From Polaromonas sp. (GTDB taxonomy: Bacteria > Pseudomonadota > Gammaproteobacteria > Burkholderiales > Burkholderiaceae_C): a stretch of 64,000 bases of DNA. Both the position numbers and the translations under genes were made by a program. The stretch lies in assembly GCA_031390175.1 (NCBI GenBank), contig JANMTF010000195.1, forward strand, positions 12,941 through 76,940. The letters run 5' to 3'. Shown piece by piece: positions 4,046 through 7,532 of the stretch. The stretch's first letter is position 1; each line of letters opens with the position of its first letter. The notes under the pieces were generated by a model, which saw only the letters and a list, made by a program, of their open reading frames with translations, made no database searches and was not told where the DNA came from.

Positions 4046-4366
4046 ATGTCGTCCATGCCCACCTTTGATCATCTGCACAGCGCCATTGGGCAAGACTGGC
4101 ATATCCATGACGGTGCGCTGCATGTGGAGCAGGTCAAGATTGCCCAGGTGCAGGCAAGCAGGGCCATGAGCGCGCAGCACACGGCTTTTCACCTGACCGT
4201 AGAGATGCCTGTGGGCACTTATGGCGAGCAAGGCATTTACTCCCTGGTGGCCCCCGACGGCCAGGCCTGGTCTATTTTTATGAGCCCCGGCGCACCCTCG
4301 GCCGCTGGCCAGGCCCGCTTGCAGGCCTCTTTCAGTTACCCCAAAGCGTTGGCCACCGCTGCATAG
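4046..4366 (+). CDS. Small hypothetical protein (106 aa), first gene of the tail-collar/collagen-like cluster
   Basis: ATG-initiated ORF with no signal peptide, located 51 nt upstream of the tail-collar gene. I could not assign a family from the sequence alone. Confidence 0.55.
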   Translation: MSSMPTFDHLHSAIGQDWHIHDGALHVEQVKIAQVQASRAMSAQHTAFHLTVEMPVGTYGEQGIYSLVAPDGQAWSIFMSPGAPSAAGQARLQASFSYPKALATAA

Positions 4367-4417
4367 CCAAAGTGGTTAGTTCAGTCTCTTTTTAACTTTT
4401 TATAAAGGAAAAATCTC

Positions 4418-4981
4418 ATGGATCCGTTTCTTGGCGAAATCAAAATGGTCGGCTTTAACTTTGCGCCCAAAGGCTATGCCTTGTGCAACGGCGCGATCAT
4501 GTCGATTCAACAAAACTCCGCGTTGTTCGCCCTGCTAGGCACCACATTCGGTGGTGACGGCATCAACACCTTCGGGCTGCCTGACTACCGCGGCCGTGGC
4601 CCTGTCGGCATGGGACAAGGGCAAGGCTTGTCTGCGCCCATCCTGCAAGGCGAGCGGGCCGGTTTTGAAAGCGTCACGCTGACGCAGGGCAACTTGCCGA
4701 CCCACACCCATGCAGCAACCACAGCGGGCTTGTCTGCCAGCCCGGCAGCTACTACGGCGGGCGGCGGCCCTTCGCCCACTGGTGCAATTTTTGCCAGCCC
4801 CGCTGCGGGCGATTCTTTTGCATTGCCTGCCGCCGGCGATGTCACCATGGCCGCCATACCCGTCACGGGCACGGTCACCATCCTCCCCGCCGGTTCCAGC
4901 CAGCCAGTAGGCGTGCGCAACCCCTACCTGGGCACCAACTTTGTGATCGCGACAGAAGGCGTTTACCCGTCGCGCAACTAA
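4418..4981 (+). CDS. Phage tail-collar domain protein (MdpB-type, microcystin-dependent-protein family)
   Basis: MDPFLGEIKMVGFNFAPKGYALCNGAIMSIQQNSALFALLGTTFGGDGINTFGLPDYRGR...LTQGNLPTHTHA is the textbook Phage_Tail_Collar N-terminal signature. An AGGAAA RBS-like sequence lies upstream. Confidence 0.85.
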   Translation: MDPFLGEIKMVGFNFAPKGYALCNGAIMSIQQNSALFALLGTTFGGDGINTFGLPDYRGRGPVGMGQGQGLSAPILQGERAGFESVTLTQGNLPTHTHAATTAGLSASPAATTAGGGPSPTGAIFASPAAGDSFALPAAGDVTMAAIPVTGTVTILPAGSSQPVGVRNPYLGTNFVIATEGVYPSRN

Positions 4982-5025
4982 GCAATTTCTGCGCCGCCAG
5001 CCTGGACGGGTGGCGGTGTTGTCCA

Positions 5026-5054
5026 CTAGTCCATTTGGGTAATGTGCAAATGAT
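5026..5054 (+). promoter_or_regulatory. Conserved motif copy 2 (CTAGTCCATTTGGGTAATGTGCAAATGAT), 83 nt upstream of the 5109 start codon
   Basis: About 22 of 26 positions are identical to 3967-3992, with the same orientation and spacing relative to the downstream start codon. Confidence 0.45.
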
Positions 5055-5108
5055 TACAAAACATCCACACTTGTGATATCCAGCCACTCATTTTTGAAAG
5101 GTCACGCC

Positions 5109-7385
5109 ATGAAAAACCCTGCACGCGTCTCCAATTTATTCGCCATTTTGATGGCATCGGCACTGGGCCTGAGCGCCTGCGGCGGGGGCAGCAGTGACGC
5201 AGTCACACTGTCCACCGTAGCGGCTAACCTGGGTGTCCCTTTGCTGGGCGGCACGGTGACACCGACCGCCAGTTCCGGTAAGGACGGCGACTATTACCTC
5301 GACACGGTCGCTGGCAGACTCTATGGCCCGAAGGTGGACGGCGCCTGGCCAGCCAGCAGTTTATTGCTGCTGGGCCAGCCAGGGCCGGTGGGGGCGCCGG
5401 GCAGCACGCTGCTCAGCGGCACCACCAACCCCATCGCAACCCAAGGCAATAACGGCGACTTCTACCTCAATACCACTGCCCACACTGTGTTTGGCCCCAA
5501 AGCAGCAGGAGCATGGCCGGCCACGGGAGTGTCTATCGTAGGCCCGATCGGCGCGACCGGGTTAACTGGTGCAACAGGCGCGACTGGTGCGACGGGGCTA
5601 GCTGGTGCTACGGGTGCTACCGGCGGTACTGGCGCTACGGGCGCTACCGGCGCGACCGGGCTAGCTGGTGCTACGGGTGCTACGGGTGCTGCCGGTGCCA
5701 CAGGCGCTACCGGCCTAACCGGCGCAACTGGTACTACCGGCCTCACAGGTGCCACAGGTGCCACAGGTGCCACAGGCGCTACCGGTGCCATCGGCCTGAC
5801 GGGTGCTACGGGCGCGACTGGTGCTGGCGCTACGGGTGCTACGGGTGCTACCGGCGCGACGGGACTAGCCGGCGCCACAGGCGCTACCGGCCTGACCGGC
5901 GCAACTGGCGCCACCGGCCCCACAGGTGCTACGGGTGCCATAGGCTTGACTGGTGCCACGGGCCCGATTGGCTTGACAGGCGCAAACGGCGCCACTGGCG
6001 CGGCGGGTGCCAGCTTGCTGAGCAACGCGGGCACGCTGAGCAACGCCATTGGCGGCCCTGGTGATTTCTACATTGACACCAGCAACCACACTTTGGTGGG
6101 TCCAAAGAGTGCAGCGAATGTGTGGCCAACCCTGGGTGTTTCGTTGGTTGGCCCCACGGGCCCCACGGGCCCCACGGGTCTCACGGGTCTCACGGGCAAC
6201 ACGGGTGCGACGGGCAACACGGGTGCGACCGGTGCCCAAGGCACCAGCGTGTTGAGCGGTGCGGGCGCACCGGCCAATGCCGTTGGCAACGACGGCGACC
6301 TGTATTTCAACACCACCACCAGCACGCTGCTGGGGCCCAAGGCAGCGGGCGCATGGCCGCCAACCGGCACCTCACTGGTGGGTGCCACAGGTGCGCAGGG
6401 CCCGCAGGGCATTCAAGGTATACCAGGTATTCAGGGGGCCACCGGGGCGGCTGGCCAGAGCATTATCAGTGGTGGCACTAACCCCGCTGACGGTACCGGT
6501 AACGTGGGTGATTTTTACATCAACACCACGACCAGCACCCTGTTTGGCCCCAAAGCGGCAGGCGGCTGGCCTGCTGGCGTGTCACTGGTGGGGGCCACCG
6601 GAGCAGCTGGTACCAATGGCACCAACGGCAACACGGTGCTCAACGGCCCCACCAACCCGACCTCCGCACAGGGCGTGAACGGTGACTTCTACATCAACAC
6701 CGCCACACAAACCTTGTTTGGGCCTAAAGCCGCAGGCGCATGGCTCGCAGGAGTGTCTCTGGTGGGATCTCAGGGTATTCAAGGTGTTCAAGGCACTACA
6801 GGACCACAAGGGCTTCAAGGCACTCAAGGCAGTACAGGACCTCAAGGCATTCAAGGCCCCGCTGGCCCCGCTGGCCTGGCTGCCCTCAGCGGTACCGTGG
6901 CTGACGCAAACGGTGTCACCTTGGGTGCTATTGGGGGGCCGATCAGCGGCGCACAGCTTCATGTCATCACGTACACATCCACAGGGTATGTCGCTTATAT
7001 TGGATTAGATGGGCAAATTGACAATTCCGTAGCCACTTTTTGGAGTGGCGCTGGCTGCACAGGTTCAGGAGCTATCGGGGGCAGTGCTGTCGCTGGCGTA
7101 GTCAGATTCACCAAGGAGTTGTATTACAACAGCGCCACCGCTGCAAAAACTTATACCTTGGCTAACGGGAATGCCAACAATTTAGCTACGTCAGTGGCAT
7201 TTTCGACAGTATTTGGAGTAATTGGAGGAAACATAGCGCCTTGGACTTTGACCGGTGGCGTATGTACGGCTAATAACCAGGCTACCAATTTCGTATTTCC
7301 GCTGGTGGCTACGACCATGGCGACGGTGGGCCTGCCTGCACTGGGTGCGGTCACGCCCATAGCCGCACCTTTGATACTAAGATAA
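5109..7385 (+). CDS. Collagen-like (Gly-X-Y) repeat lipoprotein with six GDFY(I/L)NT...GPKAAGAWP modules and a non-repetitive C-terminal domain
   Basis: The internal ATG at 5109 gives [27 protein letters not shown], a signal peptide plus lipobox. Six conserved ~30 aa modules ([133 protein letters not shown]) alternate with G-X-Y tracts of very different lengths. Confidence 0.8.
5541..6012 (+). repeat. Coding 9-bp-periodic tandem repeat (GGTGCNACNGGN...) encoding ~52 GAT/GLT collagen triplets
   Basis: Direct reading shows [26 protein letters not shown].... One register break occurs at GATGAGATG. Confidence 0.9.
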
Positions 7386-7532
7386 ATGGATAAATGGGGG
7401 CAGATTACATTTAATTTTCTGGCCTTCATTGATGCCCTGGTCACTCTTTATGCCATAGCCGCCTTATTCCACAGCCGCCTGGGCATGTTTTCAGATCGCT
7501 GCAGCACCATCAGCGTTTACTGCTGTTACTGA
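7386..7532 (+). CDS. Candidate 48-aa single-pass membrane micro-protein, start abutting the collagen-like gene stop (TAAATG)
   Basis: Manual translation gives MDKWGQITFNFLAFIDALVTLYAIAALFHSRLGMFSDRCSTISVYCCY, with a hydrophobic helix and a Cys-rich tail. It is below the ORF-track size cutoff. There is no independent coding evidence. Confidence 0.3.
   Translation: MDKWGQITFNFLAFIDALVTLYAIAALFHSRLGMFSDRCSTISVYCCY

Follow-up and report, generated by a model that had tools for sequence, protein, structure and literature searches.

Does a phage tail-collar gene that sits among bacterial housekeeping genes, beside a gene for a collagen-like lipoprotein, mark the remains of a phage or a part of the bacterial cell surface? 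The question is raised by a locus in a stretch of Polaromonas sp. DNA of 64,000 nucleotides (nt) (GCA_031390175.1, contig JANMTF010000195.1, positions 12,941 to 76,940 of the forward strand), which was analysed as a whole and is referred to as the window. Three genes form the module under study: a DUF6916 gene, a gene for a stand-alone tail-collar protein (Collar) and a gene for a collagen-like lipoprotein of 758 amino acids (aa) (Table 1). The answer preferred here, to which we assign a probability of about 0.5, is that the module is a phage-fibre-derived, domesticated and diversifying surface-fibre system in which the pair of DUF6916 and Collar acts as an accessory of large surface fibres. 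The module is a local variant of a widespread DUF6916-Collar pair and not a one-off. A first-pass annotation made from the sequence alone had described a four-gene cluster without other phage genes; an open reading frame (ORF) check found all four ORFs in place, and three of them are upheld as genes, the fourth being part of a conserved non-coding 3′ flank. Neither MdpB-type genes nor surface proteins of the collagen-like kind are new; what is new is their conserved linkage with DUF6916, the putative shared operator and the exchange of head cassettes. No paper linking tail-collar proteins with collagen-like or giant adhesin genes, RTX (repeats-in-toxin) adhesins included, was found in the literature.

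Table 1. Features of the module and of its surroundings, in window coordinates.
Feature	Position	Strand	Basis or remark
REP-like repeat copy, dispersed, not module-specific	3679..3732	+	50-nt unit
Operator-like palindrome, AGTCCATT-N5-AATGtACT	3967..3989	+	56-78 nt before the gene-1 ATG; left module boundary
DUF6916 gene (gene 1)	4046..4366	+	Pfam PF21880, E 1.8e-12; 106 aa
Stand-alone tail-collar gene, COG4675/MdpB-type (gene 2)	4418..4981	+	Pfam Collar PF07484, E 1.2e-25; 187 aa
Hypervariable centre of the Collar protein, aa 101-152	4718..4873	+	identity drop among relatives
Second operator-like copy, half-site AGTCCATTTG	5026..5051	+	60-83 nt before the lipoprotein ATG
Collagen-like lipoprotein gene, 758 aa (gene 3)	5109..7385	+	signal peptide, Pfam Collagen, orthologues after Collar
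C-terminal head A, 168 aa, exchangeable cassette	6879..7385	+	head swap in relatives
48-aa ORF, judged not to be a gene	7386..7532	+	no start, broken frame in relatives
Conserved non-coding 3′ flank, right edge of the head cassette	7389..7700		blastn against locus L103
REP-like copies in the window, all seven	3694+, 7730-, 8082+, 8769-, 9119+, 37332-, 61133-	both	

The product of gene 2 is an MdpB-type Phage_Tail_Collar protein, as it had been labelled at first sight; its Pfam match scores 89.7 bits against a cut-off of 24. It fits the stand-alone class of such proteins (about 170-215 aa, conserved collar domain, C-terminal ...NPYLGTNFIIA.EG.FPSR motif), and in alignments the collar domain (aa 1-100) and the C-terminus (aa 153-187) stand out as conserved. 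At least 3,997 relatives were obtained at E<=1e-10, and the best 120 listed are almost all about 170-225 aa long; close relatives carry the database names "microcystin-dependent protein", "phage tail protein" or "tail fiber protein". To our knowledge, the COG4675/MdpB family has no established function. The window protein resembles the stand-alone members in architecture and length, and differs from COG4675 at large in belonging to a single-copy subgroup, whose members are found together with DUF6916 and a gene for a large surface protein. Soil metaproteomes contain COG4675 proteins, some of them from the Comamonadaceae genus Ramlibacter (PMC5579227).

A phage origin of this protein is indicated by its structural relatives. 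The profile of the Collar family matched the tail fibre of cyanophage A-1(L) (8KEC, E 3.5e-7) and T4 gp12 (E 2.6e-3; 1OCY, 1PDI and 5IV5) in the PDB, and its LPTHTH motif (H96 and H98, nt 4703-4711) aligns with LPSHQH of 8KEC. With both phage proteins it shares the collar domain, the LP-H-x-H motif and the arrangement of conserved parts around a variable part, which bears out the earlier description of the module as made of tail-fibre-like parts; a gp12-like trimer with a metal site would be expected by homology. Unlike the phage proteins, it is only 187 aa long, shaftless and not phage-encoded, and it has a constant DUF6916 partner that phages lack. It begins at the collar domain, with neither an N-terminal shaft nor a baseplate-attachment region. 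Among GenBank phages only residues 6-98 were matched, inside long actinophage minor tail proteins, and no record covers at least 80% of the protein. Because shaft and phage context are both missing, the Collar protein is not a tail fibre in the functional sense.

The lipoprotein is the second part with phage relatives. Its start was set at the ATG at 5109 behind a GAAAGG ribosome-binding site, the mechanical ORF beginning at a GTG at 5073, and from this start both the length of 758 aa and the lipoprotein assignment made earlier are confirmed. The signal sequence consists of a charged n-region, a hydrophobic core and the lipobox LSAC with Cys24 (5178-5180), which fits [LVI][ASTVI][GAS]C; it predicts lipidation, and it is also kept in the related loci L008 and L103 (L numbers denote the loci compared). 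The body is composed of six modules of about 45 residues with the consensus 'LLSG..P....G..GDFYLNT....LFGPK..G.WP..GVSLVG', which alternate with seven G-X-Y runs of 12-96 residues; the collagen repeats total about 280 residues, and Pfam Collagen was matched in five stretches (E 2.3e-35). Over residues 43-145, similarity was found to tail-fibre or minor-tail proteins from phages of Burkholderia, Ralstonia, Sinorhizobium and Erwinia, with 41-57% identity to those of the first three. Repeated 'GDxYLxT...GPK..W' units beside collagen-like repeats likewise occur in Burkholderia and Ralstonia jumbo phages (FLC-type, BCSR5), in Sinorhizobium phage Phosso and in the metagenomic lipoprotein relative L095; in contrast to phage tail fibres, the window protein carries a lipoprotein signal peptide and is encoded among housekeeping genes.

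Among bacterial proteins the lipoprotein is comparable with Legionella Lcl, streptococcal Scl1/Scl2, Bacillus BclA and Burkholderia Bucl, all of them G-X-Y surface proteins with a non-collagen head. The likeness to BclA extends to Thr-rich repeats (GAT/GxT), and Bucl8 is also a lipoprotein (PMC4565658). In contrast to Lcl, Scl and BclA, the window protein has an N-terminal lipid anchor by prediction, not an LPXTG or exosporium attachment; in contrast to all four, its collagen runs are broken by six phage-type modules and its head is an orphan domain; and the linkage of its gene to a tail-collar gene is absent from the Bucl paper (PMC4565658). The NCBIfam models for Lcl, SclA and SclB scored 109, 92 and 95 against cut-offs of 500, 400 and 325, with matches confined to the collagen repeats, so that equivalog membership is not indicated. 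By sequence, the protein is a bacterial collagen-like protein outside the Lcl and Scl families and, as far as tested, outside the BclA family.

That the three genes are what a decayed prophage or tailocin has left of its tail-fibre region is extremely improbable, although phage tail fibres are homologous to both larger proteins, the cluster has REP-like inverted repeats on its flanks, and the distant lipoprotein relative L095 lies in a real phage contig where it adjoins terminase, endolysin and spanin genes. Of the ORFs tested across the window, none proved to be a phage gene, and in particular no sheath, tube, baseplate, tape-measure, lysis or integrase gene was seen next to the fibre genes. 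The 30 large flanking ORFs scanned are housekeeping genes (purK, purE, the thioredoxin/TPR gene, gatA/gatB, mreB/mreC, PBP2, topoisomerase, recQ, glnE, yhdP and gap among them), and no tRNA gene lies within the window. The module genes are intact, conserved across orders and native-like in their GC content at third codon positions (GC3), DUF6916 is absent from the IMG/VR and GenBank phage collections, and the flanking repeats are a dispersed seven-copy element, not cluster-specific ends. Across 19 related pair loci, the recurrent families among 117 neighbouring proteins were GNAT, HlyD, OEP and sulfotransferase, and no phage family was seen among the 25 commonest, which cover all families with at least two matches. 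The earlier statements that no other phage genes are present and that this is not an ordinary prophage tail module hold for the ORFs tested in the window, the latter also for its relatives, and the cluster is not a tailocin.

Gene 1, for whose 106-aa product a profile search had been proposed, was identified by this search as a DUF6916 gene (47.6 bits against a cut-off of 27; profile positions 2-91 of 91 covered). Relatives are called from the second methionine (Met4, 4055), which gives 103 aa. An AlphaFold2 (AF2) model shows a small six-stranded beta domain with a mean predicted local distance difference test (pLDDT) score of 86.5; a likeness to ApaG or titin was considered and dropped, the sequence matches being insignificant. 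Only 25 DUF6916 clusters came out of a single-sequence search of 1.84 billion representatives, and a genome scan with a 13-sequence DUF6916 alignment gave 56 pattern matches and no relative, for which reason the census of related loci was run from the Collar protein.

For the census, one genome per species was scanned with the Collar protein, which yielded 79 loci; counts are given over 77 species loci, and DUF6916 was sought in them by profile search of their ORFs. DUF6916 was found directly upstream of Collar and on the same strand in more than 20 proteobacterial species, the hosts of the pair including Ectopseudomonas, Stutzerimonas, Halopseudomonas, Pseudomonas, Chitinolyticbacter, Andreprevotia, Methylomagnum, Steroidobacteraceae, Comamonadaceae, Acidovorax and Bowmanella, with weaker matches beside Collar in Shewanella and Ferrimonas. 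Elsewhere the pair usually lies directly upstream of a gene for a repeat protein of 1,800-3,300 aa, GNAT genes and genes of the HlyD-like and TolC-like types being close by; in 26 of the 54 single-Collar loci, the first 1.6 kb downstream contain the start of an ORF of at least 1,500 aa. Tandem Collar triplets without a strong DUF6916 neighbour account for 22 of the 77 loci. A collagen-like gene within 3 kb of Collar was present in five loci, including Acidobacteria. In L030, from another member of the Burkholderiales, DUF6916 and two Collar genes accompany a 742-aa secreted collagen-like protein with CBM_5_12 modules, and in the Acidobacteria L043, L047 and L048 the collagen-like gene lies just upstream of Collar, without DUF6916.

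One cassette around the pair was found in L026 (2971-18017). Its giant partner has DUF4347, Big_12 and PATR domains, and the cassette includes two HlyD-like adaptors, an M50 intramembrane protease-HlyD fusion, a sulfotransferase, a TolC-like protein, an Asp/Asn hydroxylase with a Nif11 domain and a GNAT gene directly upstream of DUF6916; an ABC transporter was not seen in it. Similar cassettes were noted in L014-L016, L023, L025, L029 and L031. As observations apart, the best NCBIfam match of the M50 protease of L026 is the daptide HExxH protease (E 1.5e-43, below the cut-off), and the cassette has a flavour of ribosomally synthesized and post-translationally modified peptides (RiPP-like) beside its giant adhesin gene. 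The idea that all giant partners are RTX proteins was given up: GGxGxD repeats were seen in L028 only, many other giants running off the fetched DNA with their C-termini unseen. With the giant-adhesin loci of Ectopseudomonas, Stutzerimonas, Acidovorax and Shewanella the window has in common that the pair stands immediately upstream of a large surface-protein gene; in contrast to these loci, which carry HlyD/TolC genes and are type I secretion-like, the partner in the window is by its signal sequence exported as a lipoprotein, and exporter genes are absent.

Among close relatives, L001-L009 and L102-L107 possess the triad of DUF6916, Collar and lipoprotein genes, with flanking contexts of two unrelated kinds. 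L001-L007 share the purEK-thioredoxin context of the window, and upstream in L008/L009 and L102-L107 are genes for a 7TMR-DISMED2 kinase, an AraC-type response regulator and a protein of 440 or 654 aa. These last proteins had been considered as a shared fourth upstream gene, which was rejected since the protein of 440 aa in L008 bears no relation to the ricin-lectin protein of 654 aa in L103, and the window has neither. In blastn comparisons of the window with L103 and L105, homology extends from 3958 to about 6793, is lost over the head and resumes from 7390 to about 8132. The limits of homology are identical in two chromosomal contexts, and the module therefore relocates with fixed boundaries; the co-conservation on which the first-pass annotation had staked its case was found, the three genes being kept together and moved as one unit.

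The module is diversified in two places, the first being the centre of the Collar protein. Its identity to the window protein averages 0.65, compared with 0.85 for both flanks, over the eight closest relatives, and 0.32 compared with 0.71 over all 54 relatives. At the DNA level the centre is 59% identical to L005 between adjoining blocks of 98-99%. In sliding-window comparisons with L005 and L103, blocks of 98-99% identity stand beside blocks of 59-70%, the purK-trx baseline being about 86%, and recombinational mosaicism is therefore deduced. Tail-collar paralogues of Ca. Solibacter have been reported to be under positive selection (PMC3174227).

The second place is the C-terminal head of the lipoprotein. 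Head A of the window has one homologue only among 5.8 billion proteins, in L010 (70% identity), and no match to Pfam, PHROG or phage proteins. Its GC content is 0.53 and its GC3 0.51, compared with a GC3 of 0.70-0.73 in DUF6916, Collar and the lipoprotein N-terminus, 0.62 in the collagen-repeat part and 0.70-0.80 in neighbouring genes; the low GC3 suggests recent acquisition from a source of lower GC content. In L103 and L105 the same conserved flanks enclose an unrelated head B, with homology lost at about 6794-7389, and from 7390 on the 3′ flank is again 85% identical to L103 despite the differing head. On the rarity of its homologues, the lack of a family match and the low GC3, head A is best regarded as a swapped cassette. 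Head B is common to the collagen-like proteins beside Collar in L030, L043, L103, L105 and L108. A truncated, promoterless copy of it was also noted about 1.1 kb past the lipoprotein gene in L103 (12517-12720) and L102 (14355-14558), which could be a spare cassette for head exchange.

A further link between the genes is a motif upstream of both transcription units, first picked up as direct repeat D9 of the window. The shared 20-nt block C[TC]AGTCCATTTG[TG]G[CT]AATG lies 56-83 nt before the ATGs of gene 1 and of the lipoprotein gene; spelled out, the operator-like motif reads AGTCCATTTGTGCAATGGACT. The gene-1 copy is a perfect palindrome, AGTCCATT-N5-AATGGACT, in L005 and L102-L107. Both positions have kept the motif in L001-L005 and L102-L104 while the surrounding intergenic DNA diverges; it is also kept before gene 1 in L006-L007 and L105-L107 and before the collagen gene in L108, and the exact 10-mer has no other occurrence in the window. 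The motif is probably the binding site of one dimeric regulator of both units.

These linkages bear on the possibility that adjacency has no functional meaning, and that an independent collagen-like adhesin gene merely lies beside an unrelated MdpB-type pair. In its favour, distant relatives of the lipoprotein occur without the pair, the family of the third gene differs between lineages, and 127 nt of upstream DNA of its own precede the lipoprotein gene. Nevertheless such an accident is improbable, since relocation took all three genes along within identical boundaries, several lineages have the same motif in front of both transcription units, the linkage of Collar and collagen-like genes recurs in another Burkholderiales genome and in Acidobacteria with a homologous head B, and the module genes of L008 are only 28-47 nt apart.

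In the surface-fibre system proposed here, the lipoprotein would trimerize through its collagen segments and be lipid-anchored by Cys24, the Gly at +2 predicting outer-membrane sorting, so that the distal head would be projected outward as an adhesin or receptor-binding fibre. Collar would form a gp12-like trimer acting with the fibre, either binding or capping it as a partner or providing a second determinant of specificity, and DUF6916 could be the adaptor or chaperone of Collar. One dimeric regulator would switch both transcription units through the AGTCCATT-N5-AATGGACT sites. In other Proteobacteria the pair would serve giant repeat proteins with adjacent HlyD/TolC-type exporter genes; in the window its partner would be a lipoprotein fibre, for which no dedicated exporter is needed.

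Several observations weigh against this proposal. The surface location and role of Collar and DUF6916 are inferred, and export signals are missing: neither Sec, Tat nor lipoprotein signals were detected in Collar or in DUF6916, here or across the members of the two families examined, a hydrophobicity check of Collar included. The earlier picture of a surface fibre or adhesin built from tail-fibre-like parts therefore stands as regards the parts, and an export route is demonstrable only for the lipoprotein. The window contains no homologue of the giant DUF4347 protein or of the HlyD, M50-HlyD or TolC genes, and GNAT, the commonest third partner elsewhere, is absent from it. Distant lipoprotein relatives (32-49% identity), Bacteroidota-type lipoproteins among them, occur without the pair, and in L097-L099 lipoproteins of the same architecture have neither Collar nor DUF6916 nearby; the fibre type thus predates its link with the pair, is more widely distributed than that link and does not need the pair in general. 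Promoter (sigma-70) and terminator scans performed no better than chance. The AF2 monomer of Collar is of low confidence (pLDDT 58), as expected for an intertwined trimer, and proves nothing; the search with its fold gave only insignificant matches, all to the same tail fibres. The DUF6916 model had no Foldseek match at E<=1e-3 in the PDB or BFVD. Literature searches found no paper mentioning DUF6916, functional studies included, and for stand-alone tail-collar/MdpB (COG4675) proteins only incidental mentions and no functional study.

With signal peptides absent from the pair and exporter genes absent from the window, an intracellular role of the pair is therefore the main rival: DUF6916 and Collar would act inside the cell as chaperones, in quality control or in targeting modifications to large repetitive exported proteins. 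Apart from the missing export signals of both families, this is consistent with the conserved position directly upstream of the large gene and with loci elsewhere in which the pair has genes for cytoplasmic modification enzymes (GNAT, sulfotransferase, Asp/Asn hydroxylase) on one side and the giant gene on the other. We nevertheless consider it rather unlikely. For the Collar fold family, the only known role is that of a receptor-binding tip outside the cell; specificity determinants exposed at the surface, and not chaperones, typically show a hypervariable centre and mosaic recombination; and the partners, the collagen-like lipoprotein and the DUF4347 giants, are unrelated in sequence, so that a common client recognition is not obvious. 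The same diversifying, cassette-like evolution of parts derived from receptor-binding proteins would also suit a phage-resistance or competition device, in which a fibre layer and a soluble tip-like protein mask or mimic receptors. This is very improbable: the reading is speculative, PADLOC defence models matched none of the module products, and the module has no linked gene for a toxin, an immunity protein or a nuclease.

A wider proposal can be put forward tentatively, namely that DUF6916 and Collar constitute an undescribed, widespread two-protein module, domesticated from phage receptor-binding tips, that is attached to very large surface fibres, collagen-like ones or giant repeat adhesins, or assembles them, and in which recombinational exchange of the Collar centre and of the head would confer strain-specific binding. 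If true, this would be a bacterial counterpart of phage host-range switching, serving adhesion or cell-cell and cell-surface recognition. Stand-alone tail-collar proteins are very common in bacterial genomes, and the locus and the census supply a testable genomic rule for one subgroup: Collar paired with DUF6916, usually in front of a very large surface-protein gene. This rule turns an annotation curiosity into hypotheses on fibre partnership, co-regulation through the palindrome and exchange of specificity by head cassettes, for which the three-gene lipoprotein version without a dedicated exporter would be the easiest test system.

The remaining ORF of the former four-gene cluster directly follows the lipoprotein gene. 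The stop/start junction TAAATG is real (7383-7388), and the 48-aa hydrophobic ORF behind it did not hold as a gene: its ATG is absent in L010 and L103, and indels of 1 and 16 nt break the frame. Beyond its stop, nucleotide identity to L103 stays high for about 170 nt. The conservation past the stop, the missing ATG and the broken frame therefore identify 7386-7532 as conserved non-coding DNA. The ORF matches no protein family and has a GC content of 0.48, compared with about 0.62 in the neighbouring genes; the idea of a coupled membrane peptide was dropped because of the conservation pattern in L010 and L103.

Directly 3′ of the lipoprotein stop lies a 33-nt element (7389-7421), GATAAATGGGGGCAGATTACATTTAATTTTCTG, also written GATAAATGGGGnCAGATnAnATTTAnTTTTCTG. 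It recurs in L010 (1303-1340 and 1733-1790) after a truncated histidine-phosphatase gene and in L105 (13854-13917) after an intact one, and it may be a recombination or terminator element. Its folding was no better than that of shuffled sequences (z = +1.06), and an Rfam scan of 3400-9500 found nothing.

The left and right surroundings of the module carry a repetitive extragenic palindromic (REP)-like repeat of about 50 nt, GGCTGCAGCCCAATAGAATGATGCGGGAGCAGCTACTGTATGTGTAGCG, with seven intergenic copies in the window on both strands; it was also observed downstream of the module in L103. Transposon ends were considered as an explanation for the inverted repeats at 3677-3770 and 7672-7765, and rejected, the core of these repeats being this dispersed 50-nt unit. 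No credible gene was seen in the 1.8 kb from 7533 to 9330. This interval contains direct repeats of about 540 bp (7662-8198 and 8701-9235; 83-86% identical), whose inverted ends carry the REP-like unit, and between them, at 8336-8599 on the forward strand, what looks by eye like a degraded XRE-type helix-turn-helix gene with in-frame stops, ...LTQVAAAEILDVSRPRVSDLVNAKLGRFLLDTLVGLLLRTGKSVELVVH.

Outside the window, the module of L108 (8696-14154; Collar 74% identical) appears to be disrupted or misassembled: a DDE transposase sits in the position of DUF6916, a GT2 gene lies between Collar and the collagen-like gene, and the latter is in several pieces ending in head B. Further downstream in the window, an ORF with a glycine-zipper 2TM domain was noted on the reverse strand at 9333-10352, with a CTG/CAG triplet run near 9360, and the interval 9501-10000 shows an extreme AT skew of -0.415. 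The ORF at 12326-12853 on the reverse strand, flagged as collagen-like by a G-X-Y regular expression, encodes an RRM_1 RNA-binding protein with a Gly-rich tail.

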